Positions 644 to 41,198 of a stretch of 64,000 bases of DNA are shown one piece after another. The notes beneath the pieces are model-generated. The model was not told the origin of the DNA. It saw only the letters and a list, made by a program, of their open reading frames with translations, and did not search any database. This DNA is from Psammoneis japonica (taxonomy: Eukaryota): the NCBI GenBank assembly GCA_008632985.1, contig QPGO01000143.1, positions 124,001 to 188,000 on the forward strand, in the 5' to 3' direction. The position numbers and the translations under genes are program-made. Within the stretch, counting starts at the first letter, position 1, and each line of letters begins with the position of its first letter.

Positions 644-2486
644 TCACCACAAAAAGTCAACCAAGGACGGGCCACGAGAAGAATCCCCTCCACCAAGCAA
701 CGTTTTCGCCAGAGAAACGATTTCCTTTCCAAACGCCACATGAGGCTCATCAGCCGACTGTGGAATGATACCTTTGCTCAAAGGACGTCCCATGATTGAA
801 TTGGCAGCTTCCATGCCTGTCACATATGCCTTTTCCTGACTCCATGTATCCCGGCGACGCACAATGTCACCTACAAAGTAGACGTTCTTCACTTGATTGG
901 ATTTCAAGTCCGGCATGTGAGAATACGAGCCTGGATAATACCAGTTTACAGCGTTTGGAAGTCGAACTACCGCGGCATCTACTACAGAGGCGGATTTGCA
1001 TTCGCTTCCCAGCATTGTGTCGAGATCGTCCTTTACTTTGGCCACGATAGATTCGTCGTCCATCACCAAGAGATTTGAAGCATGGTAGAAATCCACCTCC
1101 AATACAGAGCCGGGGGCGTCCGCAACAGTTTCGCCATCAAGTCCATGAATTGTGGAAATGTCAAACATTGTCATTCCAACATCGCTGTCAAATCCCCAAC
1201 ACGCATTGGCCGAGTACGGAACGTCAATGGTACGATCTAGAAAGATTCGAGTCGCCAAGACGCTTGTTCCACGCAGATTGGCAAATCTTCGAAACTCAGA
1301 GTACTTTGACAAGTCAGGACTATAACGAACCATTGCATTCAGAGCTTCACCTCCCACTGCAAACACAACCGTATCTGCCTCCAAGTTCATTTCAGTCCCG
1401 TCGCTTGTTTTACATTTGATTCCAGACATGATATTGTCGTCTCCAATATCGAACCCAACCACACGAGTCGAGGTTTGAAACTTCACTCCATTGTCCTTCA
1501 TGACTTCTACCCACGGATCAAATATGGCAGATCCAATGTTTCCCTTACACCACTGAACGTCAAACGACTGCTGACTCGCCAGCACAAAAAAGTACGCCAT
1601 TCCCAGAGCCGCCGCGGCACTGCATTCCGCGCCGGGAGCAAACAATCCGGTCAAAATCATGGGTTCAAAGGCTTCTTGGTAGCATTTTCTGGAAACACCC
1701 AAGCGAATGCACAAGTCTCGAAAGGAAACGCGGTCGTATTTTTCCCACGCCTCGTGGCTATTGTCAAACTCGGAAAAGGCCAGCACCAAGGGCAAGGCGG
1801 TCGCTCGGTCGAGTAAACTCAGGTTTGTAAATTTCGTGTATACGGCTTGTGCCAATCCTGTCGGCAGCTTGACAGCTTGGTCTTGATACACGGGCCAGAC
1901 TGCTTCCAACCCGTTTGGTGAGTACTGTCCTTGTTCCGCAAAATCCGTCAACACGTCGTCCTTGTTAAGATTGGGCAAATCTTCCATTAATTTATAAATG
2001 TTGTAATAATTGTTCCAAAATCCATGTTGTCCAGCTTCGGCTGGTCGATTCCCCGACATGGATGTAAAGCCATCTCGAACCAAGCCCTAGACAAATGACG
2101 ACGAAGAACAAGAAAAATGAGTCATGTATCAGTTAATCCAATGAAAACAACATATCCAACGAATGTCACACATGATGATTTCGGCTTACCCCGACTCTTG
2201 GGGATGCTTCCACTACCGTCACATCCATGCTTTCATCCTTGGACAAGACATGTGCAGCTGAAAGTCCACCCCAGCCTGCACCAATGACGACAACTCGTTG
2301 TTTCTTTTCCGTGCCTTGTTGTTCCTCTTGGCCACTGGTGGAAAACAGTCTCGTCGTGGTGAAGCTATCCTTTAATCTGTTTTCATTATTACTGGTGTTG
2401 ATAGATCCATGACTTATCAAAAATCCATTAGTGCTTTTTGTAGCGAACACTAGCAGGACTGCGCTGAACCGTCTCAAAACGACCAT
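644..2486 (-). CDS. Flavin-containing amine oxidoreductase / carotenoid desaturase-like protein, probably plastid-targeted; 2 exons (2486-2190, 2086-644)
   Basis: FAD-binding VVVIGAGWGGLSAA...VVEAS; GTAAG...CTAG intron 2189-2087 joins RVG|GLVRDG in frame; GQHGFW and C-terminal YFVGD...SQEKAYVTG motifs; N-terminal signal-like peptide. Confidence 0.85.
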
Positions 2487-3074
2487 GGTCTTTTCGTATT
2501 GTGCACAACCGCAAAAAAGTGAGCAGTGACGTGTTGTTCTTCCCTCCGACGCTGGTACAAATTTCACGTAGAAAACTACGGAGGAATCTGACTCACATAT
2601 TTTGTGTTTAGGCGTTTGTACTCATTCTGCTTCGAAAAAGGGCACGCTGCCTGGTGCCGCAAAAACATTTACCGGATCTATCTGTATCTCGAGAGCTAGA
2701 CTATACAACTAATCTTTTCACCTAGACGTACGAGGAACTGATAGGAGCAACAAATCAAATCTCGCTTGGACTGCTGCAACATAAAATTTGTTATTTAGTA
2801 GGGTCGAAAGATGTGGCAAGGCGCCAGCGACACATGAGCGACACTTCTGTCGGAACAAATCGAAAGAGAGATTTGCGCCTTGCGAAGGTGGGAATAAACG
2901 CCGTTGAGAGATAACAGCAATAGAATGCAACATTGATTTTGATGAGAAAAGCTACTATACATTATATGCTATTGTCAGAGAGAAAGGCTAAATGATTGTT
3001 CCACACAATCAAGGATTCCCTCTCGTCATTTCATTGGAAAACACAACGTGATCCAGGTCTAACCCGAATCATCG

Positions 3075-5564: not shown

Positions 5565-5949
5565 GGTGGTGAACGTCAATAGCAATAATAGCAACAGCAA
5601 CAACAACAGACTCGAGCGGTGTAACAACAACAACAACAAAAGTCGATTGTGATTGTTGTGATGCGTGCGGGTCTGTCAGATTTTTGCAAAATCCAACGAT
5701 CACTTTCATCTACGGTTTGTGTGGTATCGTTCAAACGTACGTAGCTTTTGTACCAAGTTCTATGTAAATTTTCGAATTGAATCATGTGCACGACTCAACC
5801 GTCACCATTGATTCAATCGACTCAATCCCGAATCCTCTTCCCTGACGGCACACGGACGGTGGACGGTGGGGTCATTTTTTTCATCATTGACCACTCTACT
5901 CATTCAGTGGTGTGAAAAAGTGGGCATTATGTTGTAGTTGCTGTAATGC

Positions 5950-6960
5950 AGTGATGCGAGTAAGGGTGGTTGTCGCGCACAAGTTTCGTCTTCTGCGCTG
6001 CTCACGAAATTTGAACAGCGCTGTGGCCAGCGCACAGGTGGCAGGTTTTCATTGTCTTGTCGGCTTGATGGCGTCAATGTTGTCTCAAGACAGGTGGCAA
6101 ATGTTCAGTCTTGACAGGTGGAGTCTGACTGAGTTGTGTTCCCTCAGTGTCTGTGAGGAGGGGACAACAGACCCAGGCCATCCTCTCCCACTGGGAACAC
6201 CGTGCTGGATGGGGAGAGCTGATCTCTGTGGGGTGCAGTGGAGCGAGATCTCCCAAGGCAATGATGTGTGTTGCCCACACTGTTGTGATGCTCATCCTTA
6301 CATTGACATGACTGAATGCTCCCAAGTGTGGTTTTTGCCACTTGTTGGCTGGTTTCGACAATTTTTTGTGAAGCATCGTCTTGGCTTCTTTGCCAAACAG
6401 CTGCACGACGATTTGCAACGAAAGGAGCAAAATGACGGTGTTGCTCAAGACAGGGCTTGAGATGCTTGCATTTTTCTCATGTTTGTGGTCTGCCAGGACT
6501 TGTGCCGGCATCAGGAACACTGACATCTGACACCATGTCTGGCCTTCCATCCCAAAATCTCAGCAGCATGGGCCAGAAGATCTCCGTGGTCACCTTCCTT
6601 GGACTTGTTGGAGTTTGTGTTGCCTGGGGAACTGTTGGAGTTGCTTGTGCTTCCCAAGATGCAACCAATGGGGTTGATGAGAGGTTTGTCACATGTGCAA
6701 GAAGGCTTGCAAGCATCTCCAATTAGGTTGCCTGGGCCACCACACACTTCATCATGCCGTGAGATGACTGGGCCACCCTTTTTGCACTGAAGGGCGTTGT
6801 CAATGGAGAATTTGCAGCCGCATCCATCGCAGCACTCGTGGAGGTCCAGTGGAGTGCAGCCACACGGCAAAAAGAGCGTGTCACGGAACTCTTGGCATGA
6901 GAGTTCTGTGCCATTCATTGTCAATGGCTGGCTGCAGCACTTGCTGCTTCAGACAGAAAT
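5950..6960 (-). mobile_element. Degenerate 3' fragment of an RLE-type (CRE-like) non-LTR retrotransposon, TpA-depleted
   Basis: Frameshifted ORFs give GTELSCQEFRD...CDGCGCKFSIDNALQCKKGGPVISRHDEV (zinc knuckle region), GDLL...FW...DV (restriction-like endonuclease) and KEAKT...KWQKP...RMSI; very few TA dinucleotides. Confidence 0.75.
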
Positions 6961-7157
6961 GAAAAACTGTGGTTGACAAACAAAGGGGGTGGACAAAGAC
7001 AACAGGATAGATTGCACCATCAATTGCTCACATATCCCTTCATTGAGCTTGTTGGCGACAGTTTGAATTTGAGGTTGCTCGTTGATGATTCGGTTCATTA
7101 GATGCCAACGCTATGGTAAAAAGGAAACATGCAATAATAAAGATACATATGAGCTAT

Positions 7158-11738: not shown

Positions 11739-11903
11739 TGCAGCAGCTCACTCGCACGCTTCTGACATATAGTATTAATTTTGGATATTAGATTAACGTA
11801 GCCGTTTGAGAGAGGCTCGCCAGCGTTCGCCAACGCTTAGGCTCCCCTCTCTTCGGTCTACTCACTTCTTAGTTTTGACATCAGTTTTCAGCTTGAGCTT
11901 GCA
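11739..11903 (+). repeat. 5' LTR
   Basis: Direct repeat of 17008-17172; 9 mismatches, no indels by manual alignment. Confidence 0.95.
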
Positions 11904-12114
11904 CTGTAATTACAGTCGATTGTAAAGAGCTGAATGAGAAACAACGATACAACTAATAGGCTTACGAAACAAGAGAAAAGAACATTGAGAGCGAAGGCAG
12001 CGAACTGGGCTTTGGAACAAAAACGGCAAAAGGAGACACGAAAACAACGCGAACAGGATTTGGCGATTCGGGTTACACAACTCGAGTCGAAGGTAGAGTG
12101 CTTGAAGCAGTTTC

Positions 12115-13341
12115 TTGGAGGACCAACTTGGCCTGATGAGCAATCGCGAGAGTCTTGAAGAACCGTGCATTTTGCATGCTGTGAAATTTGCTCATTCGGA
12201 TTTGGAACTTGCAAAATTGACTCAATCGCATGATGATGGTGGCACGCGTACAAAGAAGTGCCCTTGTTTTGATGGAACTAATGGCATTGAAGCGCTGTTG
12301 TTCGTGGAAGATCATTTTCGTAAACTGGCTGCAAAACTTGAATTCACCACAGGCGAAGAACTGTTTGACAATTTCGAGGAAGTGTTGACAGACACCGCTG
12401 AAGACAAATGGTCCAATCTCACCATGGCGATTCCGAATGCGCAAAAGACGGTGGCTCGTTTTGACCAAGAATTGGCTCGTTTTTATTTGTCGTGTTGTGA
12501 AACTGAAGCGCGTGACACGATGATTGAATGCTTGCTCTCCCTTGAAAAACCATGTGATGTTGAAGCACAGGCACACGCGGATCGAATGGAGACACCAGTG
12601 CGACACACGAACAAGTTGCCGGGAAATAATCCAGTTGTCACTCAGAACCAAAAGAAGAAGATGATCTTCGACAGCTTCCCTTTGTCGTGGCGTGAGATGC
12701 ATGCAAGAGCAGGACGCACGATTGGAAATGATGCGTTGGCGGAAATTGTGGCGTGTGTGAGCACGGAGAAATCATTTGCAGATGGGAACAAGAAGACTTC
12801 GAAGAAGCGCAAAGACGGACAGTCGAAAGGTGGCGGCTCTGCCAAGAAGAAAGGCAATCGCATTGACCCAGAATCTCAATGTCCTTTGCATGCTCACAAT
12901 CACAAATGGAAAGATTGCGTCATGAATCCCGACTCTGACAACTGCCGTCCAAGAACTGATCGCGGAGGTCGTGGATGTGGTGGCCGTGGCGGTCGAGGTG
13001 GAGGTCGTGGTTGTGGCGGAGCGCAAGGTCGTGGTTGGCAAGGCCATGGCTGTCAAGGTCGTGGTGGTGGCCGAGGAAACTGCGGTGGTCGCGGAAACTG
13101 TGACTCTGGCAGCAATGGCGGCGAGCATCATGATGATGGTGGCTCTTGCATGCAATGTCAAAACGACACCCGAACCAATGCAGATGGCGGCGGTCATGGC
13201 AATCCGGCCAGAATGGCTCCTCCCAATGATTGGTCTGCTGAAAGCCATCATCTTGATTTGATGGGAGGGCCTCGAGAGCATCGAGGTGGAACGGGAAGTT
13301 TTCGACCTGGTGGTCGCTTCTCGGGACGCGGTCGATGCTGA
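12115..13341 (+). pseudogene. gag: Gypsy gag (RGG-rich C-terminus), hypermutated
   Basis: CPLH..H.W..C knuckle-like motif, RGG repeats; only 1 Tyr in 408 aa; GRGC repeats probably from GRGY. Confidence 0.75.
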
Positions 13342-16300
13342 CCCAATGAGCTTGAAGAGCTGTCGTCCAAGTGTGTCACTCCTGATTTTTACATGTTTGA
13401 TGATTGTGCTGATTGTGTTGATGATTGTCATGTGCACGCTGCTGATTTATTTGATGATGATGATTTCGGAAATTGTGCTGTGAATGACGAAGACGATGTG
13501 GGACTTGAGTGCACTGCACCAACCCCAAAAACAAAACCAATTGAACCATTGAATGTGGTCCCCACAACCTCATTCGCGGCGCGATTCATTCAAGACAAGG
13601 AAAGCAAACGTGTGATGCGGGCATCACTTGATTCCGGTGGAACCCATTCAATGATTCATGCTCGGGTGTTGCCGGTTGGAGCGGTTCCAGCATTGGAAGA
13701 GACAGGACCGATTTGAGCGAAGTTTAGAACAATGGCAGGAGAGTTCGAATCAACTCGTTATGTTCGATTGCAGGACTTGGTGCTCCCTGAATTTGACAAG
13801 ACCAAACATGTTGATGGCATGCGTGCGCATGTGTTTGACTCACCCTGCCAATGTGACATGATCCTTGGACAGGACTTCTTGGCGAGAGCAGGTGTCACGT
13901 TGGATTTCGAACACGGAATTGTCAAGTGGCTCGGTTCAAGCATTGCAATGAAGCCGAAGAATCAGCGGACCAGCATCCAGCAATGGCTCGATGATTTAAC
14001 TGATGAGCCAGCTGATGATGATGATGTGTGGGACAGTTGCATCCTCCATGCAAAATGTGAGGAGACGTCCCCGTCTGAAGTGGCTTCAGCTCAGAAGCAT
14101 CTTGCTGCCGAACAGCAAGAGAAATTGTGTCTTGTGTTGGAGAAACACACTGCTCTTTTTGATGGCACCCTTGGCAAGCACACTGGCAAAAAAGTTCACC
14201 TTGATGTTGATCCTAACGCCGTTCCGCACCATTCTCGAGCGTGTGCAGTGCCGCACAATGATCTCGAGACTTTTGAGCAAGAATTGGATCACTCAGTGGC
14301 TCTTGGTGTTCTTGAAGAAGCCGGAACTTCGGAATGGGCTGCAGGTGCCTTTGTTCGACCAAAGAAAGATGGACGAGTGCGGTGGCTCAGTGATTTTCGG
14401 GAACTCAACAAAGCCCTCAAGCGCAAGGTTTGTCCCTTGAAGATCATTCAAGATGTGTTACAAAAGAGAGCCGGGTGCAAATTTCTTACAAAGTTGGATC
14501 TCTCAATGATGCACCACACGTTTGAACTGGACGACAATTCCAAAGATCTGACGACAATCGTGACACCCTTTGGAAAGTGTCGACACTGCCGTCCAGCAAT
14601 GGGTTTGAAGCCGGCTCCGGACATTGCGCAATGCTTGATTGAGAAAACTGCACATGACTTGGACGTTGACGCGTGCATTGATGATCTCGCTCAATTTGAT
14701 GACAATTTTGATGTTCACCTTGCTCATCTCGACAAACTCCTGCAACATTTGGAAGAAGCTGGATTTAAAGTGAATCCTTTGAAATGTGAATGGTGTGTGC
14801 AGGAAACGGATTTCCTTGGGCATTGGCTGGCTCCGACTGGAATTCGTCCATGGAAGAAGAAAGTGGAAGCCATTCTGCGAATGCAACCTCCGGAAAATGT
14901 CAAGCAGCTTCGCTCGTTTCTTGGTGCTGTGACATGCTGTCGCAACATGTGGCCTCGGCGTTCTCACTTGTTGAAACCCTTGACAGATCTCACAGGCAAA
15001 GGCTCGTGGACGTGGACAGCAAATTGTCAGGCGGCATTCAAAGAGATGAAAGCAGCACTGGCGGCCGAGACGTTGATGGCGCATCCGAATCACAACAAAC
15101 CCTTCCACATCTGTGCCGATGCCAGTGATTGCCAAATGGGCACAGTGATTGTACAAGACGGAAAACCCATTGCATGCTGGTCTCGAAAGCTGAACGCGGC
15201 GCAACAAAACTGCTCGACAATCGAAAAAGAACTCTTGGCTGTTGTCATGTGCTTCCGCGAATTCCGAACGATGCTCCTTGGCGGCGACTTGCATGCATTC
15301 ACCGACCACAAGAACCTCACCTTTCGCACCTTGAATTCACAACGTGCACTCCGTTGGTGCCTCTTTCTGGAAGACTTTGCCCCTCAATTCCATCACATCG
15401 AAGGCCGCTTGAATTTCTTGGCTGATTGTTTTTCTCGTTTGCCTCGCACGGATCCTCCCTCTGAAGGGAAGAGCTTGGCTCCGGGCAAAAGAACTGTTGC
15501 TGATTTTGCTCCGCTCGATTCGAAGTTGGTGCCGAGTGAGGAACCATCCGAAGTCGAGGATTTCCACGATGAGGACTTGGAGCTCGGCGCATGCCGATTC
15601 AAGTGTTGTCGCAACATTGAAAATGAAGGCCACTCACACTTCTTCTCTTTCTTTGTTGATGAGCCGGAACTGTTCAATTCCTTTTTGAATCACCCTGCAA
15701 TGCAGGAGATGCAAAATCCAATGACGTTACAACGGATTCAAGAGCACCAGTTCGAGGACCAACAATTGAACCAGATGCGCATTGCTCACCCTGATTGTTT
15801 CCTCGTGGAACATGTGAACAATCGACTGCTTGTGTGTTGTCGCACGCGATTGAATGATCCTCCAGGACAGTGGAAAATCTGTTTGCCAACTGCGCTTGTG
15901 CCCGACATCTTACGGTGGTGTCATCTCGTCCTTGGCCATGCCGGAAGCCAGCGCATGCGTGAAACAATCCAGGCTCATTGTTGTCACCCTGGGTTGCGTC
16001 GCATGTGTGATGAACATTCTTGTGCTGATTGCCAACGTAACAAAACTTTGGGTCCTGGCTGTGGAGAGCTGCCCGAACGAGAAGCTCCATTGACCCCCTG
16101 GTCGGAAGTGGCGGTTGACCTCATTGGCCCATGGAAAATCAAAGCACCGAATGGAGAGATTGAGTTTCGCGCGTTGACCTGCATTGATCCTGTCTCTAAT
16201 CTTGTTGAACTGGTGAGAATTGAGAATAAAACTGCTCGACATGTTGCCAACCAATTCGAAAACTGCTGGCTTGCACGCCACCCCAGACCGAATCGATGCA

Positions 16301-16884
16301 TCCACGACAACGGCGGCGAGTTCACCGGGTGTGAGTTTCAGATGCCATTGCAACGAGCCGGAATTGATGATGTGCCGACTGCTTCATACAACCCTCAAGC
16401 CAACGCCATTTGTGAACGAATGCACCAGACTGTCGGCAATGCACCACGCACGCTCATTGCTTCTGATCCACCTCAAAACCTTCAGGATGCAGCCAGCCTC
16501 GTGGACGATGCTTTGGCAACTGCAACGCATGCAACCCATTGTGCTGTTTCCCGTTCCTTGCAGATTTCACCAGGTGCTGTGGTGTTCGGACGTGACATGA
16601 TCTTGGATGTCCCAGTGCTGGCGGATTTGTTGACGATTCAAGGCCATCGCCAGACGCTGATCAACAACAACTTGCGACGAGCCAATGCCAAGAGAAGATC
16701 CTGCGATTGTCAAGTGGGCAATCAAGTTCTAATCAAGCACATTGAGCCATCCAGACTCGAGCCTCGTGCTCATGGTCCTCATCCCATTGTTCAAGTGCAT
16801 GTGAATGGCACACTCTCGGTTCGTCGAGCTCCTCATGTGGTTGAGCGCCTCAACACTCGGCGCCTGATTCCTTTTCGTGGTTGA
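13342..16884 (+). pseudogene. pol: Gypsy pol (protease, RT, RNase H, integrase), one internal TGA at 13714-13716
   Basis: LDSG protease (13627-13638), RT DFRELNK and CIDD for YxDD (14674-14685), RNase H DAS...EKELLAVV...TDHKNL, integrase H..GH...C..C, VDLIGP, DNGGEF, ERMH. Confidence 0.92.
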
Positions 16885-16995
16885 TCAGGGGGTTTTCTTC
16901 CCAACACCTGGGTTTCCTCCTGTCATTGTCTTTGCTTTTGGTTTTGGTCCTTGGTTTTTGGCCCTTTGCATGATCCTCTAGTTCTTTCGGATCAT

Positions 16996-17007
16996 GGAAG
17001 GGAAGAG
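16996..17007 (+). promoter_or_regulatory. Polypurine tract
   Basis: GGAAGGGAAGAG immediately upstream of the 3' LTR. Confidence 0.9.
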
Positions 17008-17172
17008 TGCAGCAGCTCACTCGCACGCTTCTGATGTGTGGCATTGATTTTGGATGTTAGATTAACGCAGCCGTTTGAGAGAGGCTCGCCAGCGTTCGCT
17101 AACGCTTAGGCTCCCCTCTCTTCGGTCTACTCACTTCTTAGTTTTGACATCAGTTTTCAGCTTGAGCTTGCA
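17008..17172 (+). repeat. 3' LTR
   Basis: Direct repeat of 11739-11903, followed by TSD CACTT. Confidence 0.95.
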
Positions 17173-17177
17173 CACTT

Positions 17178-17385
17178 TGGGGGAAGTCTCCAGCCAGCTG
17201 CTGGCTGAAGAATCTTATGTAGAATTTGTACTGAAAGAGTCTGTCAATCTGTGCGTTAGGGGGTTTTGGTGCACGCTGGACAGACTCGCCGTCTTTTGCG
17301 TACATAATAATTGTACTGGCAAAACCCCCAAACGCACTGACGAGCAGACTTTCTTCAGCCAGCAGCTGGCTGGAGACGTCCCCCA
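17178..17385. mobile_element. MITE, ~35-bp TIR (TGGGGGA.GTCTCCAGCCAGCTGCTGGCTGAAGAA), 4-bp TSD ACTT
   Basis: TIRs at 17178-17212 and 17351-17385 with 1 mismatch; ACTT at 17174-17177 and 17386-17389; second copy at 57281-61443. Confidence 0.9.
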
Positions 17386-18768: not shown

Positions 18769-19340
18769 GGTGGAAACTGAAAAAAAATGAGATGTAGTAG
18801 AGAGATGGAGGTGTGAGATAGTTGCAAGATAAGCATCAAAACATACTGAACAAACAGCAGATGGATTCGTCCGACTACATCACAGGGCCATGGTATTCAC
18901 TATCCGTCGCATCGTTTCATGTCATGTTGATCGACACTGCTGCTCTTTCTCGTTGCTGCTCTTTACAATCATCTTTACAATAATAATTCTCATGCAATCC
19001 ACGACAAAACAACCACCGCAACGAAGCGGCGGCGGCTCTTGCATCATCGTACCTGTTGCGTTGTTGTTGTCTCCAACACACTGTGCGACATGTGCGGTCC
19101 TCCGTAGGTTGTGGTAACAAGTCTACGTTGATTTGTGGAAGTAAGCGGTATCCGGTTGAATGCTGATTGATTGGACTCAAATGAAAAATAAAATTATTCA
19201 GTCGTTAATAATAATTATGCATTGGATTTGTCTGTTTGGCTTCTTCTCATTCAAGTGGTTCCCGTTCCATTCAACTTTTCGTGGCATGGATCGTCTGCTT
19301 GAAGTAGCCTCACTTTTTTTTTGTCTCTTCTCTCAGAACC

Positions 19341-20309
19341 ATGACGACGCCAACACCGACTCCGGACGTTGCGTCCATGTCGGCGGCTCGTGTCGCTTCC
19401 AAAACGGCACCACCTACCAAACATCGTGATGGATTTTCATTGATATCCACAGATCCCATTGTATATGACGATCATCTGGAAGGATCATCATTTGTCGACA
19501 TTACCTATCACGTATCAACACAAGATGCATGTGCAAAAATTGCCTTGAATCGTCCTCACGTGTTGCATGCGTTTCGTCCTAGAACCATTCAAGAGATACA
19601 ATACGCATTGGAATTGGCACGAGAGGATATACGTGTCAATGTTATTTTGTTGACAAGCAACATTTCTCCACAATACACACCCGCCTTTTGTGCCGGTGGT
19701 GATCAAACGGTGCGTAGCAACGACGGTGGTGGTTATACGGATGAAACCGAAGTACAACCCAAATTGCGTGTTTTGGATTTACAAATTCAAATGAGACGGT
19801 GTCCAAAACCAATCATTGCCGTGGTACGGGGTTATGCCATTGGTGGTGGACACATTTTGCACATGGTGGCCGATTTAACACTGTGCAGCACAAACGCCAT
19901 TTTTGGACAAACGGGTCCTCGCATGGGGAGTTTTGATGCCGGATATGGCTCGACGCACATGGCACGACTTGTCGGACAAAAGAGGGCAAGAGAATTTTGG
20001 TTCTTGTGTAAATTTTACAATGCCCAAGAAGCGCTCGATATGGGACTTGTCAATGGCGTCTTTGAACAAGACGAGTTGGACGGAGAAGTGGCACGGTGGG
20101 TACGACGTATCAACATGAATTCACCCACGGCCGTGGCGTGTTGCAAGGCAGCGCTCAATGCCGATGAAGATGGAAGTGCCGGTATTCAAGAGCTCGGTGG
20201 ACACTTGACGAGACTCTTTTACATGTCTCAGGAAGGTCAAGAGGGACGTAATGCCTTTTTGGAACGACGAGCTCCGCAATTTCGAAAATTTCCGTCCAGT
20301 AAATTGTAA
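19341..20309 (+). CDS. menB: 1,4-dihydroxy-2-naphthoyl-CoA synthase (naphthoate synthase), peroxisomal
   Basis: [62 protein letters not shown]-terminal SKL. Confidence 0.95.
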
Positions 20310-24088: not shown

Positions 24089-24689
24089 TGTAGATATTGA
24101 TAGGAAAGGTTGATGGGTGATTGAAGCAACAGATTATGAGAGATGACAAGTACGTTCGTTGCGTTCACGATATTTTTGATGGGCGAGGAAAAACCCGCGA
24201 AAAGTGTCGATGACGTAGCAAGCGGCGAAAGATATTAACGGACACGGTGACGTATTTTGACATTTCAACTATATTCAATCATTAGGCACAATAAAAGAAT
24301 GCTTATATTCACATTTTTATAATATGATTGAAACACTCTTAGGTGACATCAGAGAAGATCGTCCAATCAGATTCCTTCAACAAAGTTGATGGATGCGAAG
24401 GATTTGACACAAAGAATGTAGTACAAAATCTCAGTGAAATTCTACACAAAGATTCTCTCGCTGAAAAATACGGACACAATGACGTCAACGGTACGTTCGC
24501 TACCACGAAACCACGTGTTATTAATTACTTCGTAACTGCATCTATTTAATGATTTTCTACACGTGGAGCGTCAAAACTCAGAAATGCAACGTCAGTGTCT
24601 CCGCAAAGAAGACACGTTGACGTCACCAATCTTGAGCACGAACGAAATGAACCCGTGTGGCATTAGAGTGTTCTTACTGACCCCGTGCG

Positions 24690-27600
24690 GGTCATGGGTC
24701 TCGGGTTCTGATCCTTTCGTCTTTCAACACTTGACTCAACCATGATTTGCCTGCCTGGTGCCGCAGCCGATCCACTCAAGCAGTGTGGGAGCATGGCTTT
24801 GATGCTTTGATGCGATGATGGGGCCGTGGGGTTCTCGTGTCATCTGCCAAGGTGAGAAACAACTTGGTGTCCAAGGCTTTTTTGCCATGAATGTTGCCAC
24901 AAATTGCCACACTTGTGGCTCACTAACAGAAACATGAGGGGTTGGTGGTCTCTCAACATGCGAGAGGAGCATTTCTTGTGCCAAGGAGAGAAAACAAGAG
25001 CAGCTTTTTCAGCCAGAGATGTGCCCCGGATGTGCGCTCCGCTCAATCAGCTGTTCAATGTTGATCAGAAAAATGGGTGTTTGTTGGATCCAGAGGAGTG
25101 AGTTGGCATTGCCGACATTTGGCTTGGCATTGCTCTCAGCTGCACATGCATTTTTTGAGCCACACCCACACAGTGCAGCTCAGATTTTGGCAGACTCAAG
25201 TGTTCTCATCTGTCAGCAACATGACACATGAGGAAAATCATTGCCCTGCTGACTTTTCTCCAATGTGCTTCCAATGAGTTGATGATTGCTCTGACAACAG
25301 TGCCAAATGAGCAACTTGATTCAACAATGTGGAGGAGCTCTGTTGGCATCACATGTTTTGTTTGAGCCCACCCGACACAGCTCTTGTTGTGCCATGCTTT
25401 GAAGGACATCATTGTCAGTTTGCTGGCAAGGAGTTGTTTTTGTTTTCTTTGACCAAGGCTGCACCACTTGGACTTGACAACACACCACCTGTGTTGGCAA
25501 ATGACTGCTCTGGGAAAGCTGGGACTCAACTCGTTGGTCGCGTGGATGCCAGTGGCTTTTGGCGCATCTTGCTGACACAGACATGCTCCTGTCATTGGAT
25601 GAGAAGCTCTTCACAGAGGTGGGTTGATGGTTTTCCACTGTTCACCAGAGCAACAGAGTGCAAAGCTGAAGCAGTGGGTTGACCCAGACACTGGCCAAAA
25701 GTGCGCAGCATCCCATGGGGCCGGGCGCTTGTCATCAAATGGTTTTGGAAGTGTGAGCTTGAGTTTGGCTTCACCTGGGACATTCACAGCAGCCCTTTCC
25801 TCCTTCCCAGCCATCACTGCTGATCTGGGCTCTTTGTTTTTTTTTACAAAACCTTGCTGCTCCTTCCACATGGCCAGCACAGTGATCTCGAAAGGGTCGC
25901 TGTCTCTGTCCTTGTTCCTTCTGTGAACAGTGCACTCAGCCAACATCTCCACAGCAACCCAGCATTTTTTTAAGGTGCTGCAATGCACAAACTCACCAGT
26001 TGATTTGAGACAGCCATGAGCAGGGCCATCAGGCCCATCACAGAACTCATGTGGAGCTGGCTTTCAGACTGACTTGCTTGACAGTCATGTGTCCATTGAA
26101 ATGTGCTTGAAGCGCCAACTTGCTTTCCACATTTGTGCAACAAACAGCAGGTTGCACAACAAGCTCTCATTCTTGACCTGCAGCAGGTTTGGAATCCTTG
26201 GCTTTTTGGTGACTTCCTTCTGCTTGTTGATGAGGTCAACTTTTTCATCCTCTGTGAGATCAATGTTGACATTCACAACTTCCATGAGAGCCAAGAATCT
26301 TCTCCATTGAGAGCCACAATAAATGGGAACAGCCTGGATGCAGAAAAACAATGATGTGGTGGGCCAAGCTTTGTGATCCATTTGCACACCAGAACCACCA
26401 GATCTGGACCCCTTCTTCAACTCACCCAATGCCCAGCACACAAACTCATGATGCTGTGGGCATCCACTGGACATGATGATGTGGTGCATGGATGCTGTGA
26501 CTTGATTGTGATGCTCATCGTGATGATGAGCTGATGTGATTTTTGTTGCCATGGCACAGCACAACCACATTTCACTTCTTTTCACAGAGCTCTGATTCCA
26601 CCTGAAAGTGTTGAATTTGCACGAGAGGCAGGGAGTCAATCTTCTTGCAGCCTCAATTGTTTGTGATTCACCCCTGAACCTGCAAGACAGTGCTTGATCT
26701 GCAGGTTTGCATGACTTCCCACAGATTGGGTGACATCAGGTGACACTGAAAAATTCTCATGGTGATGCGCAGTGATGTCCAATTTCAGGAAACCTGGAAA
26801 AAATGAGCCTGCACCGGGTCAGAAAGAACAATCTGTTGTGTCTGAGGAAAGGAAGAAGTCTGCAAAAAAAAAAGCAAAAGCAAAGAAAATTAAATGTGGT
26901 TTGTTGGCAGAAGTCTGCTCCACTGGTGAAAATGATGCATGGTTGTGAGATGTGAGGTTGTCCAAGATGCAATTTGAGAACTGCCACTCTCCTCAGTGCC
27001 AGGGCCCCAGTCAGAGTTCAAACACACAGTGGCACACACCTTTTGAGGGGCCTGCAGAGTTGAAAAATTGAACACAAACACCATTTTGAGTGCATGTTCA
27101 TGAGCCTCCTTTCTTCCCCACTCTTTTCACTGTGGTGCCAACAGAGCAGTGGTCTTTTCGACACCAGTGGTTTGACATGACCATGGCTGCTACAGCTGCT
27201 CAGCATTCATTGTCCATGCATTTTTGTTGAGCTGCTTTTGCTGCACTGCTTCAAACAGAAGTCACTTCTGCCTTTTGTGTGGCAAACACAAATGTTTTGG
27301 AATTTTGATTTTGCTCAGGTTTTTGTGTGGGGAATGTGTGTGAGTGAGCAGGTGTGTGCTGCAGACTCTGCTTTAAAAGGTGCAGCAGGCAGTCCAGCAA
27401 GCTGTGATCTTGTGACATTTCATCAACTTGGTTTGTCACAAATGAGCAACATTGTTGGCTCAAGTGAACACCATGATGACACATTTGGGGGCACACTGGG
27501 GAGTGCAACATGCCTCCATGAACCCCCGTTGCTGGGAGCTGATTGCCCAAGCTCCGCGGGCAGCCTCTGTGTGTGATGAACATTTTTGTTGGCTCTCAGC

Positions 27601-29500
27601 CACAATCAACAAGCACAAAATGTGCCTGGCCAGAGCACATTCTGCACATGCACACTTTTTGTTCTTTTCACAATCAACTGCATCACAAAACTTGCAACTT
27701 TGGCATGGCACAAGCTTGCCACAAAAAATCTGTTGTTGTTGACTGCCAAAGACCTTGCACTTTGATCATCAACCAGGCCCTGGAGAGCAAAAAAGGAAAA
27801 CAATGCAGCTGTGCACTCTCATCTCTGAGTCCACTTCAGAGATGTTGCACCTCCGCCCAGCAGCAATGCCAGCAACAGGCTGACCCACACTTTCATGGCA
27901 CTGGCAGCATGGCAAAAAAGCAATCCCCAGGGGCTGGCCTTTTGCACTCCAGTGCTGCCACGTGGTGCCTGCCCAATTGACTTTTTGCAACAATGTGGTG
28001 GGGGTGCCCCACAGTTGAAGCTCTTTCATTTTTAATGCCAGACTTGTGAACCCAGGAGCAATCAGCGTGGATCTCAAACACCCTCCTTGGCAGTTTCCAG
28101 CCATTTTGTCCACACATCTGGACATTTGTTAAAACAGCCGTCAAAAGCACAGCACAAGCTGGAGCCAATTTGTCTTGATGTGGCCCCAGACCCAGCACTC
28201 AAGCTTTTGTTGAGGCACCAGATTGGCTCTGAATTCCAAGCTGAGTGACAGGGATGATCAAACACAACAAACCTTGTTGATTTGAAAAAGAGTGACTCCA
28301 GTGCTGGCAAGAGTCTTGCTGTCATCTCTCTTTTCCTCAGCAGTCACATTTTTGGCTCTTGAAGCAGGGTCAACAACTGCAGAGTTGTTTTTGCCAGAGT
28401 CTTCTTGCTGTTGCAAATGCAAGTGATGCCACAGCAGCCACTCTCCAGCCCATGAGCTGGAGACAACAAAACAGCAGAAAGACACACACACCAAATGACT
28501 TTCCAAATGCTGGACCAGCACAATCTACCAAAAGCACTCTGCTGACAGTGGCCAGGTGTCCAACCAAAAGCACCTTTTGAAAAAATGATGGATCCATTGC
28601 TTGCTGAGTGATGCAGCTGGGTGCAAAAGATTTCTGCCATTTGTTGCACACTGGATGTCATGAAAAAGAGTCAGATTGTCAAATGGGATGGCTTTTGACA
28701 TTGTGAGAGAGCTTGAAGTTTGGTTTCAAAGCAGGCCCACCTCCCCATGTCATTGCACCCAAACAGCCCAACAGAAAGAATGGCCATTTGCCAGCATCAT
28801 TTCAATTGCCTGCATCTCCCACATGCCATCCGGAGCAAGCTCCAAAGACAAAAAATGCATTTGCCAAGCACAGCCACTCACCCCCTGGGCACACCTCCAC
28901 CAGTTGACCCAAACAGAAAGCAACCCTCCTTCTTTGCCAGCACTGGAGGCATTCAACATCAATGGACAACTTTTGAGACAGAGAAAAAACATCCATGTCC
29001 ACCACAGGTGCATGCTGAGAGCTCCAAAGCCACCAACCTCCCCACTGGTGACCTGCTGAAAAAAGTTGCCTCCAAAATGTGGCCACCCCAACAATGCACA
29101 AATGACGGGCACAGAGCTGCCAACTTCATGTCAAAAATGTGACAGTTTGGTGCACTGCACTGTTCTTGTTCCATCTCGTGCAAGAGTCAACAATGCTGAC
29201 TCTGTGTGGCACAACTGATGCACTTGTCAGTTTTCAATTGATTGGATGTGAATCCTTTGCTGGGGCAATCAACCACAGTCAATTTAAGCCTGTCCTGGTG
29301 AAATGATCACACAAGCTGCAAGGAGGTCAGCCTGTGTTTGGTGCTGCTGCAATGCCTCAAACAATGCAAAGAAAATGGAATGATGTGAATGGAGTCTGAA
29401 CGACCTAAATGATCCTTGTGTGGCCACGGTGTCTTGGATGTTGAAGTAAATGGCATGAAACAGCTTTGTCTGGCCACTGCATTGGTGATGTTGGGAAAGC
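24690..29500. repeat. Degenerate TpA- and CpG-depleted tract (unclassified old repeat or TE)
   Basis: Almost no TA and few CG over ~4.8 kb; dense short overlapping Cys/His-rich ORFs; no recognisable intact domain or termini. Confidence 0.7.
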
Positions 29501-30877: not shown

Positions 30878-33163
30878 ATGATTTCTTCGAGCGTATCCAA
30901 TGGTAGACAAAGGAGTCGTTTCGGCAACTCACAAATTATTTCGGACGGTTGGGAACTCACGGACGCTCACAAGAAAAATCGTCGATCAGGTTTCAGCGAC
31001 GTTGCGAGTGGAAAAAATGCTCTCGTCGTTAGAGTACACAACAACAACAACGAATCCTTGTATGCTCCACAAAAACAAAAGACAAAGAGAAAGCAATGGA
31101 GAATGCCAGTATTGAAAAATCTCGACGAAGTTTCAAGTGTGCTGGACGTATGCGAGGCGCACGGAGCAAGAATGAGCCCCAAAGACATTTCACTTTGCTT
31201 GAACCGTATCGCAACAATCACATCTCGCAACAAGCAAGAAAGAAAAAGGATTACAGCCAAAGCTCAAGTGCCACTGACACGCCTGATTTCCGTTTTGTTC
31301 AGAACATCAAACGCGTGGATGCCAGATCGCTTGCAATGGCTATTCACGCTCTCGCTAAACTGTCGAGTGTCTGCAGGTACAATATCGATCGAGAAGTATG
31401 GAAGAACTTGGAAGAGAGAACGATTGTTGTTCTGGACTCATTGTCCACAAGAGATATTTCCAATATTGTTTGGGCGTTTGCAAAAGTTCGGCATTCGTCG
31501 GCGGTATTATTTGACAAGGCTGCTCAAGCATCATTGTCAATTATTTGTGACTTCAACCCACAAGACCTTGCCAATGTGGCGTGGGCGTATGCAACTGTTG
31601 GACAATCTGCACCATTGCTTTTTGATGTCATAGCTGAATCATCAGCTTCAAAACTGGAGCGGTTTACTCCACAAGCAATATCCAACACGGCGTGGGCATT
31701 TGCGACTGTATCGCACTCTTCTCCACAACTCTTTGACGCAATCGCCAACGCATCTCAAAACCGATTGAGTGAATTCAAGCCACAAAATCTTTCAAACATG
31801 ATATGGGCGTTTGCCTCCATCGGTCATACGGAGCCAGCAACTTTTGATGCAGTCGCAAAAGCAGCTCTTCCAAGCATTAACAGCTTCAACCCACAAAACC
31901 TCGCAAACACGGCATGGGCATACGCAACCGCCAAGCACCCAGCTCCGTCACTTTTTGATGCTATCGCAAAGGCAGTACCCGCAAGGATAGACAGCTTTAG
32001 CGCACAAAATCTTGCAAATACGGCATGGGCATTTGCAAGTGCTGGACACTCGGCGAGATCACTTTTTGATGCCATGGCTACGGCAGCAGTACAAAGGATG
32101 AACACATTCTACCCGCAAGCAATTTCAAACATGGCATGGGCTTATGCTACCGCTGGACGCTCAACGCCGTTTCTTTTCAACTCTATTGCAAAAGCTGCAT
32201 TGCCGCAATTGGAACGATTCAATCCCCAAAGCCTGGCAAACACGGCATGGGCTTTTGCCACCATTGGACACCCACTACCGTTTCTTTTTGATGCCATGCA
32301 GAGGCAGCAATACCAAGATTGGAGAGTTTTACGGCTCAAAACTTGGAAAATACGGCGTGGGCTTTTGCTTCTGTTGGACACTCGGTGCCGTCACTCTTTG
32401 ATGTCATTGCTGAGGTAGCAATGTCACGATTGGACAGTTTTACTCCCAAAAGCCTTGCAATCACGGCATGGGCATATGCTACCATTGGACATCCAGCCCC
32501 GTTACTTTTTGACGAGATCATCAATGTGTCATTGTCGAGTTTGGGCGGCTTTGATTCTCAAAACCTCTCCAATATCCTCTGGGCGTACGCAGTCTCGGAT
32601 CAACTCTCTAAAAGTCTGCAAACGAGGTTGGTTCGAGCTTTATCAAAGCGTGCAATTCAAATGTTGACTCGTTCTCTACAGAACAATTGAGCCAACTCCA
32701 TCAGGTTTACTTGAATTGTCTCGAGCATGGTGAGAGTTCGTTGCAGCTTGATTGTGACCTGCAAAGGAGGTGTCGAGAATCATTTGTACAAATACAAGGA
32801 AATCCATCCCAGCTTCAAAAGGATGTCGCACAGACGCTTAAAGCTATTGGACTCGATCCAAAGCAAGAGGTTCGAACCAGCATTGGCTACAGCTTGGATG
32901 CAGTTGTTCGGTATCGCAATCAAGACATTGCCATTGAAGTGGATGGACCCAGCCACTTTCTTTCTAACCAATCACCGAATGGATCCACAATTATAAAACG
33001 TCGTCAGCTGTCGAGACTGGAAAGCTATCGTCTCCTCTCGGTGCCATACTGGGAATGGAAGACAGTTACACAAAAGGACTCGAAGCAAAAGTCGGGACGG
33101 GATTGGCGAAAACGATACCTCTTGGAGCGCCTAGATGGAGTAGTCAGTAATAGCTTGGCATAA
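30878..33163 (+). CDS. Helical-repeat (37-aa, HPR/OPR-like) protein with C-terminal RAP domain; three frameshifts as assembled
   Basis: About 10 repeats F.PQ.LAN.AWA.AT.....P.LFD.IA; RAP motif IAIEVDGPSHF...KRRQL...SVPYWEW. Confidence 0.8.
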
Positions 33164-33636: not shown

Positions 33637-35436
33637 TCAAAAGATGTACAAGAGAATGGCAATTGGAAGAAGAGCGTAGCACGACCATTGTGTAAAATAC
33701 CTGAAACCGGTTGATGTAGGCGAGCTAGTGGGTAAAAAGGTTGGTTCCATTGTTGGTATGGAAGATGGTGAAACAGAAGGAGAAAAGCTCAGTGAGATGG
33801 TTGGATTGTTAGAAGGACGAATGGTTGGATTGTTAGAAGGACGAATGGTTGGATCGTGCGAAGGACGAGCACTTGGAAAGGTTGTCGGGACAATAGAAGG
33901 ACGAGCACTTGGCGAAACCGTCGGCACAAAGGACGGGCTTGTGCTCGGCAAATTGCTTGTGGGAAACGATGTGTTTGAAAAGACAAACATGGAAGGGCTC
34001 ATGGTGGTGTTTGATGATACGTACATGGAAGGGCTTAAACTCGGTGACGGCGTGGGAGCCGGAGTGGCGAGCACTGTCGGAATTTCATAGGTTTGCACCG
34101 GTTCCATAGGATCAAAAGGCAGCGGGCTTTGGCCTTCAAACGCATGATTTTGTGGTATAGTAACCTTGTATTGATCAATCAGATCCGTCATGGCAGCCAC
34201 AATCTCGGGATAGTCGTTGTACACGTTGGAAGTCTCTTGGCGATCCACGTCGATTTCATAGAGTTCGTTCTTCCACTGAAGCATTTTCCATTTGTCGTAC
34301 CGAACCGCAACTTTGTCAGAGAAGGGATCTTGATAAAAGGTTGGATTCTTTCTTGACCGATTGGATCCCAGCCATATATCACTAACATCTTCTCCTTCGA
34401 CAAGATCTTGCGAATAGTTTGCTCCGGCGAGTGAGCAAATGGTTGGGAGCCAGTCGAGTGACGAGAAAAAGGATTCTGTATTGACCTTGCCGGCAGGCAC
34501 TCGTCCCGGCCACCTTACGATAAATGGCACGGACGGTCCACCCTCGTACCAATTGTGCTTTCCACCACGAAGACCACCGGACCATCCGGCAGCATAGTCG
34601 TCGGGTTGATCATTGACCGCCGGGCCATTGTCACTGGAAAAGACCAATAGGGTGGTGTTTGCCAAGCCCAGCTCATCGAGCCGCGTCAATAACCTACCAA
34701 TGTGAATGTCCATACCATAAACCTCGGCTAGATAGTTTTGCATGGAAACGTCAATGTTTCCTCCCAGTCTCTCGATTGTATCAAAATTTTGTTGCATGTA
34801 GGGACCAAACAGACTGCGGTTGACGACGAGGCCGTTAAATTTTTCCTTCAAAATGGCTGCCGGTAAAATGGGCGAGTGTGGAACGTATTGCCATACATTG
34901 AGATAGAATGGTACATTTTGATTTTGTTCCACAAAATCAATCGCCAAGTCGTACCGATGCGCTTCCTTTCCTCGTGGGTCGTTTCGTCCATCGTGGGTAA
35001 TTCTCACATCCGTCATTCCATATTCCGGAAACGCAAAGCCGGTATCACTCCTGGCGGGTGTAGGATCCCCGATATTCCACTTGCCGATATGTCCGACTTG
35101 GTATCCCGCGTCTTGTAACAGCTGTGTGACCGTCATGGTACCCCGAAATCCAAAGTCGGGAGTGTAATTGGGAAACCACGAGGGATTGCGGCTCGTCATG
35201 AAACCCGCTCGGCTCGTGGGACAGATATTGCCTGTATTGTGAAATCCGTAAAACGCTGTTCCCTCTCTGGCCAGTCGATCGACATTGTCTGTAATGGCAT
35301 AGGGGTGACCGTACGACTTTAAATCACCAAACCCCAAGTCGTCGGCGTACATGAATATAAAATTTGGGCGGGCATGGACGACTGTAACGGAGAAAAGGCT
35401 TACAAGCAGGAGAGCAGCTGCAGCAATTGCATTCAT
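33637..35436 (-). CDS. Secreted or GPI-anchored arylsulfatase with PT-rich stalk
   Basis: Signal peptide, PNFIFMYADDLG, CPTSR active site, GKWN, SDNG, LRGGK..YEGG; C-terminal PS/PT repeats and hydrophobic tail. Confidence 0.9.
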   Translation of the reverse strand: MNAIAAAALLLVSLFSVTVVHARPNFIFMYADDLGFGDLKSYGHPYAITDNVDRLAREGTAFYGFHNTGNICPTSRAGFMTSRNPSWFPNYTPDFGFRGTMTVTQLLQDAGYQVGHIGKWNIGDPTPARSDTGFAFPEYGMTDVRITHDGRNDPRGKEAHRYDLAIDFVEQNQNVPFYLNVWQYVPHSPILPAAILKEKFNGLVVNRSLFGPYMQQNFDTIERLGGNIDVSMQNYLAEVYGMDIHIGRLLTRLDELGLANTTLLVFSSDNGPAVNDQPDDYAAGWSGGLRGGKHNWYEGGPSVPFIVRWPGRVPAGKVNTESFFSSLDWLPTICSLAGANYSQDLVEGEDVSDIWLGSNRSRKNPTFYQDPFSDKVAVRYDKWKMLQWKNELYEIDVDRQETSNVYNDYPEIVAAMTDLIDQYKVTIPQNHAFEGQSPLPFDPMEPVQTYEIPTVLATPAPTPSPSLSPSMYVSSNTTMSPSMFVFSNTSFPTSNLPSTSPSFVPTVSPSARPSIVPTTFPSARPSHDPTIRPSNNPTIRPSNNPTISLSFSPSVSPSSIPTMEPTFLPTSSPTSTGFRYFTQWSCYALLPIAILLYIF

Positions 35437-36718
35437 GCCGTTTCCACTAGTTGATGTGATGCGTCTCTAATTTAAGAAGAAGAAAAAAACAGCATGAATG
35501 TGAGGTCACATTATGCACGATCGATGAGAACACCGTGATACACCCGTGATCAAAAACATGCGGGTGCAATTTCGAAACATGGGGACTTGTTCCCCCTTTT
35601 ATACGCTCCATGTCTGTGGCAAGGCACAGTAAAAACACACACAAGTCGACACCTTGTCGCGTACATACCATGGTTGTTGCCGCCATGCTGACCCCAAACC
35701 CATCAAAGAGATGCGCAATCTGCCCCTTTTTCTGTTTTCGTTTCAGAATTCAAGAATGCCGCTTGCATGATTGAAAATATCCATAGTTTTATTCAATGTT
35801 GAATATTTTTTATTTCATGTTATAATAATGAATCGAATAAGTTGAACATTCAAATGAAACATACATGTTTATATAGAAAAAACGAAAAATGTTGTTTCCC
35901 GCCAAATTTTTTTGGCATGAAACCAAAACGCGGCGCCTCGGCCGAAGTTAGTTTTTGACACGAGGAGGAGTTTCAACACACCGCTTGTTGCTGTGTGCTC
36001 TGCTTCAACATGTCTCTTGTGTCATTGTCACATGTCTTGTGGAAATGCCACAAAGGAATTGCACAGATTGAGCCAGGCTGCAAAACAAAAGTTGGGCGTT
36101 GTGTGAAGAAGACAGCCTGGCTGATGAAGCACAAGAGATGCGAGCAAAGACACAGCAAGAAAGTCAGAGACAAAGGGATCAAGCCCTTGTGCCAAGCCCT
36201 TGCATGCTTTTGAAAAATGACAAAACTCAATTTCCATGGGAACATGGAGAGTCTTGGTCTGAAGGGCAGGCAGCATTTGGTTTGATGAGAGCGCTGACAT
36301 GTTGCCTGCTCTCCTGCTCTCTGCTGTCCAACAAGAGCATTGACCTTGTCTTGTGTGTGTGTGTCTCCAGCACTTGAGCAACACAAGACAAAGTCAGAGA
36401 GAGGGCGCCAATTTTCTGTGTCAAACAATTGTGCTGCTTTTTGTCAGCTGCGCCACATTTTTTTCTTTGCAAGATTGCTGTGGGCCCCAAAGGCATCAAG
36501 GTTTTGTGCAGAGAATTGTGAGAGCAAGCCCAGAGGCATCAGAGAAAAAACTCATCTTCTCTTTCTCATGTCTGACTCTGTCAGAAATTAAGGTGCAGAG
36601 AGCAGTGCTGGAGGGCCGCTGCACACAACTCAACCAACTGGTTTGTTTTGACCCAAGTTGCCACCCTCTGCCAGAGCTGAGGGGAAGCCAAGCTCTGGGC
36701 ACTGCTGAGTCTTGAAAA

Positions 36719-36740
36719 CACACACACACACACACACACA
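36719..36740. repeat. (CA)11 microsatellite
   Basis: Directly visible. Confidence 0.9.
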
Positions 36741-41029: not shown

Positions 41030-41198
41030 ATGTGGAAGTGTGATTGTGCGACGCTAAGTTCGCCAATCGTGTTTTTGAAGGGCCACACGACAGTGTTGTG
41101 ATGATCATGACCCAGTCATAGAATGGGGCCCTGCTGCAAATGTGATCACATCATGTCATGACACATGGGACATTCATGAATTGCCTTTGTTTCGATGT

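Follow-up and report, generated by a model that had tools for sequence, protein, structure and literature searches.

A graded flanking-base preference in TpA hypermutation of a diatom retrotransposon

TpA dinucleotides have been almost erased from a long terminal repeat (LTR) retrotransposon in the diatom Psammoneis japonica, and the bases next to each TpA influenced how fast it was lost. We analysed a 64,000-nucleotide stretch of contig QPGO01000143.1 (assembly GCA_008632985.1, positions 124,001 to 188,000, forward strand), called the window below, and count coordinates from its first letter. TA is depleted in eight islands of the window, which add up to 25.1 kb and have a TA observed/expected ratio of 0.0–0.18 against 0.33–0.86 elsewhere; one of these islands contains the pol frame of the retrotransposon. 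Three quarters of the TAs that survive in the islands lie in TTA or TAA, far more than in undepleted DNA. Multiple comparisons confirmed this flank bias as a real, partial sequence preference. The process at work is TpA hypermutation, recently described elsewhere and here found in a new host lineage, nearly saturated and with an informative tract anatomy.

A retrotransposon stripped of TpA

Two direct repeats of ~168 bp, a pol frame and a purine-rich tract make up a single LTR retrotransposon. Self-BLAST detected the 5′ LTR (11739–11906, plus strand) as a direct repeat with 17008–17173, and the purine-rich tract lies just before the 3′ LTR (17011–17176, plus strand). The interior reads on the plus strand throughout. 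It begins with an open frame in the gag position (12106–13341) that has no Pfam match, followed by an upstream part of the pol frame on the protease side (13393–13716), to which homologs align from 13519. The degenerate pol frame itself (13732–16884, 3153 bp) carries reverse transcriptase, RNase H and integrase domains of Ty3/gypsy type. An in-frame TGA at 13714–13716 ends the upstream part and splits it from 13717–16884; at position 13716, all eight covering contigs of other family copies have T instead of A. The hypermutated tract, to which no strand is assigned, spans 12094–17060 with a TA observed/expected ratio of about 0.05–0.11. It starts ~190 bp inward of the inner edge of the 5′ LTR and ends ~50 bp into the 3′ LTR.

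The element belongs to a multi-copy family, of which the window holds one pol copy. In a public sequencing run, summed contig depth over the element is ~2000–3000, compared with ~60 in flanking single-copy DNA, and depth puts the family at about 40 copies. Differences between copies, among the 40 of 682 differing places listed from contigs of that run, are mostly transitions in both directions. Within the 64-kb window, self-BLAST returned only the LTR pair and short repeats and no other pol copy. A tblastn search of the window with eight homologs found this pol alone, and a purine/pyrimidine-coded self-BLAST of the plus strand revealed no further copy.

Loss is specific to TpA and leaves its transition products behind. 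The pol frame retains 14 TA (observed/expected 0.07) next to 332 TG (1.65) and 255 CA (1.32), and AA remains abundant (244; 1.29), as the original prediction, made from the letters of this DNA, had stated. In the translated frame, Tyr makes up 0.2% of residues, Cys 4.4% and His 4.9%; the corresponding ranges in the first 20 homologs listed are 3.1–4.3%, 1.9–2.5% and 2.1–3.3%. We aligned the frame with 60 of the 120 homologs listed, the best at 62% identity. The alignment has 495 columns that are at least 70% conserved, and the window copy is identical at 419 of them. All 23 conserved Tyr columns have changed, 15 to TGY, seven to CAY and one to CGT (Y, C or T). Conserved codons that begin with A behave alike: A became G in 8 of 11 that follow a T and in 2 of 101 others (p = 1.5e-8), the latter comprising 0 of 36 after C, 0 of 27 after A and 2 of 38 after G. 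This difference confirms strict TpA specificity and disfavours a WA-type signature (W, A or T). The conserved Tyr codon that now reads CGT, at 15958–15960, had its single TA struck on both strands.

In the pol frame, a sense-strand bias toward A-to-G change was not significant (15 Tyr-to-Cys against seven Tyr-to-His changes; codon excess about 59:41). We dropped a strand-bias reading, as TG already stands above CA in intact relatives. Since TAA and TAG stops are erased along with other TAs, long open frames arise on both strands and are no evidence of gene integrity, a practical warning against trusting open-frame length in any TA-depleted tract. An example in the pol tract is the long minus-strand frame at 14503–15309.

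Surviving TpA sites are biased toward TTA and TAA

The few TAs left in pol sit in a narrow set of contexts. They lie at 13759, 13997, 14214, 14459, 14487, 14766, 15152, 15728, 15911, 16038, 16197, 16227, 16387 and 16730, in the tetramers TTAT, TTAA (two), CTAA (three), TTAC (four), GTAC, GTAA, ATAA and ATAC. Twelve of the 14 fall in TTA or TAA, with GTAC at 15152 and ATAC at 16387 as exceptions. The original prediction had noted about 12 of about 14 in these contexts, and our recount returned the same positions and exceptions.

Chance expectation is under half, as had also been predicted, by each of three nulls (0.387, 0.425 and 0.45). The first null uses window DNA at least 300 bp from any depleted tract, where 520 of 1343 TAs lie in TTA or TAA (binomial p = 4e-4 for 12 of 14). 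The second draws on 79 related metagenomic loci, used solely as a compositional null and sharing at most 58% protein identity with the element. Of these, 28 had long matches, and dropping nine with in-frame stops left 19 intact relatives (58,614 bp), whose share of 0.425 gives p = 1.2e-3. Over all 79 loci the share ranges from 0.27 to 0.59; none of the 79 is hypermutated, and their lowest TA observed/expected ratio is 0.39. The third null considers every TA that one substitution could newly make in island DNA and gives about 0.45 pooled, or 0.34–0.58 by source dinucleotide.

The bias replicates outside pol. Depleted DNA beyond the pol frame keeps 46 of 63 survivors in TTA or TAA (p = 3.5e-8), and the share is at least 50% in every island. 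With the eight islands pooled, 58 of 77 survivors (0.75) lie in these contexts, against the 520 of 1343 in background (Fisher p = 2.8e-10); the same 58 of 77 differs from intact relatives at p = 5e-9 and from the new-mutation null at p = 1e-7. Flanking sequences vary from survivor to survivor and do not stem from a single repeat unit.

Survivors look ancestral, old rather than new. Among the 40 of 682 differing places listed, TA is kept in this copy at 12075, 14460 and 16979, where all other covering contigs read G, G and C. Most survivors encode the residue found in homologs at that position.

The preference is graded and favours a preceding A and a following T

Survival follows a gradient in which ATAT and ATAS/STAT are lost fastest, STAS is intermediate and TTAA is slowest (S, C or G). 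We compared survivors with background counts over all islands, pooling reverse complements. Survivors are nearly absent from ATAT (0/94), ATAG and CTAT (0/130) and ATAC and GTAT (1/208), and ATAA and TTAT follow at 8/197. GTAC stands at 3/125, CTAG at 3/68 and CTAC and GTAG at 12/198. The counts then run to 17/156 for GTAA and TTAC, 16/100 for CTAA and TTAG, and 17/67 for TTAA. Survivors also differ beyond the adjacent base: A occupies the second flanking position in 0.45 of survivors against 0.28, and A/T runs of at least three flank 15 of 77 survivors against 56 of 1342.

These counts refine the proposed target. The original prediction had described the preferred site as roughly V-TA-B (V, not T; B, not A), and its direction holds, with survival scaled to background TA density at ~3% in V-TA-B and ~15% in TTA/TAA, a rate ratio of about 0.54. 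The motif is too coarse, as V and B are not equivalent: within V-TA-B, 1 of 432 sites containing ATA or TAT survive against 18 of 391 STAS sites (p = 2e-5). A preceding A and a following T are the favoured flanks.

TTA and TAA are not resistant; they mutate about 2- to 6-fold more slowly. We tallied by hand those ancestral TAs that can be deduced directly, from conserved Tyr codons, conserved T|AAN codons, the mutated zone of the 3′ LTR and two repeat pairs. The 5′ LTR is left out because of its position beyond the tract, as are a single GTAC-to-GAAC transversion and eight A-initial codons with an undetermined left flank; flank ambiguity within TATATA stands uncorrected. Of the tallied sites, 10 of 14 in TTA/TAA and 30 of 33 in V-TA-B have mutated, the same direction as in the survivor counts. 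The prediction of resistance thus gives way to one of slower loss. Its broader idea of an enzyme-like fingerprint keeps its core, with flank dependence that holds up under each of three nulls and recurs in the seven other islands, once "resistant" and V-TA-B are corrected.

A simple model agrees with these counts. In this additive half-site model, one flanking base sets how fast the A of each strand is lost, and a strike on either strand is enough to remove the site. Fitted cumulative hazards are 0.44 for A, 1.20 for G, 1.52 for C and 2.88 for T. The model improves on a uniform rate with a likelihood-ratio statistic of 81.4 (p = 1.5e-17) and fits the 16 tetramers with four parameters at a chi-square of 10.7.

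Mutation outcomes point to the base after the changed A. The TA site is palindromic, so survivor counts cannot assign the deciding flank to a strand, whereas outcomes can. Set against intact relatives, the excess per 1000 codons is +15.3 for TGT and +4.1 for CAT where TAT was lost, +11.6 for TGC and +14.8 for CAC where TAC was lost, and +9.8 for TTG and 0 for TCA where TTA was lost. A-initial codons after T changed in 4 of 4 cases when the next base was T, 3 of 4 when it was C and 1 of 3 when it was A. Over 39 direct events, a model based on the 3′ base reached a log-likelihood of −25.8 and one based on the base two positions 5′ reached −30.1. Our tentative conclusion is that the base following the changed A has an influence, T being good and A bad. 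The base two positions 5′ is disfavoured as the decider, and outcome data alone prove no flank effect.

The mutations arose after integration and by region

The LTRs date the mutations to the time after integration. They are 94.6% identical in plain letters and 100% identical in purine/pyrimidine coding. They differ at nine places, all transitions and all nine in TA dinucleotides (chance about 6e-8); one site reads CA in the 5′ LTR and TG in the 3′ LTR. LTRs are identical at integration and these now differ solely at TA, so the element was already part of the chromosome when the changes were made. The substrate is integrated DNA and neither RNA nor cDNA.

Tract borders fall inside the element. 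The 5′ LTR and ~190 bp inward of it are nearly untouched, with 2 of 13 ancestral TAs changed in the LTR. In the 3′ LTR the first ~50 bp are hypermutated; the LTR alignment shows 7 of 9 ancestral TAs changed there, with TTAG and TTAA remaining. Other copies are mutated at 12075 and this copy is not, so borders vary between copies.

Targeting appears to be regional rather than by sequence family. A short repeat is unmutated outside the islands at 17170–17373 and 57302–57408, and its island copies at 61139–61451 are mutated at TA. One repeat pair, with inverted ends, joins 17177–17373, which directly follows the 3′ LTR and keeps its TAs, to a minus-strand copy at 61245–61451 that has lost most of its TAs and CpGs. 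The other pair sets 57302–57408 outside an island against 61139–61244 inside one. Mutation of the repeat only inside the island suggests that location, and not membership in a repeat family, determines the target.

Proposed mechanism and alternative explanations

Five direct observations underlie the mechanism that we propose: flank bias, its replication, TpA specificity, action after integration and the mutability of TTA and TAA. A regional mutator of integrated genomic DNA would have turned about 90–97% of TpA into TpG or CpA in the eight tracts; we give the whole explanation a probability of about 0.78. The change would be A:T to G:C on either strand. Survivors would be ancestral TAs that mutate more slowly since the mutator reads the bases next to TA. 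For the A of 5′-TA-3′, a following T would make mutation fastest, C or G intermediate and A slowest, which would place the deciding flank 3′ of the edited A; further A's after TA, or T's before TA on the other strand, would slow change more. If a strike on either strand removes the site, ATAT would go first and TTAA, with two poor half-sites, last. TTA and TAA would then be one poor half-site viewed from two strands. The chemistry may be adenine deamination to hypoxanthine by an ADAT2/TadA-like enzyme.

Several observations count against this explanation. No enzyme, modified base or ongoing mutation was observed here. Taken alone, the directly deduced ancestral sites give no significant flank difference (Fisher p = 0.17), and three GTAG sites in islands have outlasted nearby TTAT, TTAG and TTAA sites, which mutated. 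A T precedes all five surviving TTAT sites despite the favoured 3′ T on their top-strand A, so a single flanking base is not the whole story. For islands that lack coding matches, the ancestral NTAN composition is assumed. Outcome data belong here as well: the TG:CA split at conserved Tyr columns is 9:1 for TAT and 6:6 for TAC (p = 0.07), and a flank-free model (log-likelihood −25.5) fits the TG-versus-CA outcome of the 39 events equally well. TG:CA splits from trinucleotide excess are inconsistent, with a value for 3′ T of 0.29 in CpG-normal and 0.65 in CpG-poor islands. We discarded this last estimate, which takes window background as its baseline, because the ancestral composition of the elements differs from that background.

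Two alternatives accept slower loss at TTA and TAA and explain it otherwise; we judge each of them unlikely, and about equally so. Instead of an enzyme that reads bases, local DNA structure or chromatin could protect TAs at T-tract/A-tract junctions, where rigid tracts, poor base flipping or nucleosomes limit access. Enrichment that extends to the second and third flanking base, an effect that rises with run length (runs of at least three at 15/77 against 56/1342) and the T's before every surviving TTAT fit this idea. It accounts less well for the immediate neighbour having the strongest effect, for the way T (0.06 against 0.27) stands apart from C and G, neither of which forms such tracts, and for the gap within V-TA-B between ATA/TAT-containing and STAS sites. 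The other alternative moves the chemistry to thymine: T at TpA would be modified, for example by hydroxylation, and read or repaired as C, with the T of ATA favoured and that of TTA poor. Dinoflagellate DNA carries 5-hydroxymethyluracil preferentially at TpA, and all our sequence results are symmetric, since an A change on one strand is a T change on the other. Adenine and thymine chemistry leave the same sequence record, and the window data do not separate them. Against thymine stands the sole published proposal for this signature, in the main text of a 2026 preprint, which is adenine deamination by an ADAT2 homolog (bioRxiv 10.64898/2026.01.13.699255).

Two further alternatives fare worse. 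Survivors might be TAs newly made after saturation, or might reflect ancestral composition, with no flank preference at all. The abundant TG and CA of the islands can revert to TA, and Tyr886 (TAC at 16387) aligns with R in 35, K in 15 and Y in 8 of the 60 homologs, as a new site might. We nevertheless consider this very improbable: neither the new-TA null (0.34–0.58, 0.45 pooled) nor the relatives (0.27–0.59) reach the observed 0.75, and at three survivors every other family contig has TG or CA. Hardly credible is an origin on RNA or cDNA before integration, by ADAR-like editing or reverse-transcription errors, followed by inheritance. Such a route would suit an element that replicates via RNA, and the discussion section of the preprint cited above gives ADAR a 5′ U preference. 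It conflicts with LTRs that differ at nine places, all TA, with a tract that stops within the 3′ LTR, sparing the 5′ one, with an unrelated short repeat mutated inside an island and not outside, and with undepleted AA (1.29).

Relation to known hypermutation systems

The closest known case is the chlorarachniophyte Bigelowiella natans. Our literature search found no paper on TpA hypermutation in diatoms, and the only description of the process it returned was the 2026 B. natans preprint. According to its main text, mutation-accumulation lines acquired 231 mutations in two integrated viral regions, 230 of them A:T to G:C and all of these on TpA, at a rate ~1000x the genomic one (Mettrop et al., bioRxiv 10.64898/2026.01.13.699255). 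The same text reports that TpA-poor coding sequences are enriched for reverse-transcriptase and DDE domains, proposes an ADAT2 homolog as the enzyme and contains no flank analysis (bioRxiv 10.64898/2026.01.13.699255).

The window shares the central features of that system as its main text presents them: TpA-only A:T to G:C change on both strands in foreign or mobile regions, with TpA loss matched by CpA and TpG gain. Here too, mutations are almost only TpA to TpG or CpA and lie in discrete tracts that leave host genes unaffected. The host here is a diatom, a stramenopile, unlike the chlorarachniophyte B. natans. The targets are an LTR retrotransposon and unidentified repeats, in contrast to the integrated viral DNA described there. 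Depletion is near complete here (observed/expected 0.0–0.1), compared with 0.45 given for the B. natans giant-virus region.

Fungal repeat-induced point mutation (RIP), which is tied to the sexual cycle and to RID/DIM-2, is alike in that it permanently hypermutates regions of genomic DNA by transitions, prefers a dinucleotide and kills mobile elements. It runs in the opposite direction. The passages on RIP that we draw on describe C:G to T:A change, mainly at CpA, that creates TpA, whereas TpA is destroyed here (TA 0.07, TG 1.65, CA 1.32). On duplication as the trigger, the observations point both ways: the family is multi-copy, yet equally repeated 168-bp LTRs and the short repeat outside the islands are spared.

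Deaminases of the TadA and ADAT2–ADAT3 type, including TadA-derived base editors, convert A to inosine, which is read as G. In their tRNA substrate A34 follows U33, which amounts to a TA context. This substrate makes a TadA/ADAT-type deaminase the most natural candidate for the mutator, which would have to act on duplex chromosomal DNA; agreement is limited to the TA context. The flanks differ from those of a TadA-8e variant, which a passage in a review places within 'YAC': here the 5′ base is strictly T, with CA building up, and the 3′ order is T > C, G > A. A Pfam search of the window's frames found no deaminase gene, such as one with an HxE...PCxxC motif, in the window.

Two other comparisons end in exclusion. 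ADAR, which is known only from animals and prefers a 3′ G, resembles the present signature in producing clustered A-to-G changes, in its case by hyperediting of double-stranded RNA. It also shares the 5′ U preference, as far as the preprint's discussion goes. Here the changes are in DNA after integration, AA is undepleted and the 3′ order is T > C, G > A; LTR divergence at TA and the mutation of a non-retroelement repeat inside an island exclude ADAR-type RNA editing. DNA polymerase eta also makes A:T to G:C transitions at TA. Its WA motif, known from the second phase of antibody hypermutation, includes AA and is excluded by the AA ratio of 1.29 and by 0 of 27 A-to-G changes after A. The signatures that the original prediction had put forward for comparison separate, with ADAR and polymerase eta dropping out and TadA/ADAT staying as a candidate through its TA context.

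A flank rule has uses beyond this element. TpA-directed hypermutation of foreign DNA had been described in one 2026 preprint on a rhizarian alga, and the same signature appears here, near completion, in a diatom. Diatoms belong to a different supergroup lineage and are ecologically dominant. What the window adds is a quantitative flank rule and a tract anatomy: action after integration, a start inside the element, spared LTR sequence and a repeat mutated only within a tract. Flank rules have been the usual route from a mutational signature to an enzyme, as for APOBEC, AID and RIP, and with this one candidate deaminases can be tested directly and other genomes screened for the process. It is conceivable, if on balance somewhat doubtful, that a dedicated genome-defence editor, common to diatoms and chlorarachniophytes, rewrites TpA where chromatin domains cover mobile and viral DNA. 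If so, the graded rule (ATAT fastest, TTAA slowest, A/T runs protective) would be the editor's biochemical signature. It could then serve to identify the enzyme and to uncover this defence in other algal genomes and across the stramenopiles, alveolates and Rhizaria.

Other islands and neighbouring genes

The other seven islands, to which no strand is assigned, vary in size and CpG content. The island at 5765–7008 keeps seven TAs, five of them in TTA/TAA. TA and CpG are both depleted at 24675–29406 (11 TAs, nine in TTA/TAA) and at 35949–40469 (four TAs, three in TTA/TAA). Two adjoining TA-depleted islands, 41119–46152 and 46353–48302, together keep 27 TAs, 18 in TTA/TAA. The last two, 59841–60832 and 61195–62985, keep six, four in TTA/TAA, and contain the mutated short-repeat copies. 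The CG observed/expected ratio is 0.15–0.49 in the islands at 5765–7008, 24675–29406, 35949–40469, 41119–46152 and 61195–62985, and 0.77–0.85 in the pol element and the two other islands. This pattern suggests a slower second decay, of CpG to TpG or CpA, in older tracts.

A mobile-element protein was identified in one island only. Pfam returned no match for 58 open frames of at least 110 amino acids in islands other than that of the pol element, so Tyr codons could be used to deduce ancestral sites in pol only. A search of the ESM Atlas with a 406-residue frame (38774–39991) gave no usable match. A second direct-repeat pair, 43564–43766 and 46956–47150, lies ~3.4 kb apart in islands and is 86% identical, or 92.6% in purine/pyrimidine coding. 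These repeats could be LTRs that belong to a further dead element.

Host genes in the window have long uninterrupted frames with normal TA. They encode an amine oxidase (644–2086), a MenB-type naphthoate synthase (19308–20309), a sulfatase (33637–35466), a Costars-domain protein (52448–54301) and NDUFAF7 (55498–57189); the MenB, NDUFAF7 and sulfatase frames all lie outside the islands. Named homologs of two of these proteins are all from diatoms: those of MenB, at 68–79% identity, from Asterionellopsis, Seminavis, Coscinodiscus, Skeletonema and Chaetoceros, and those of NDUFAF7, at 36–45% identity, from Fragilaria, Seminavis, Nitzschia, Cylindrotheca, Amphora and Stephanocyclus. A long FAST kinase-like frame, also outside the islands, contains tandem repeats of ~111 bp and its multiples at 31500–32600.

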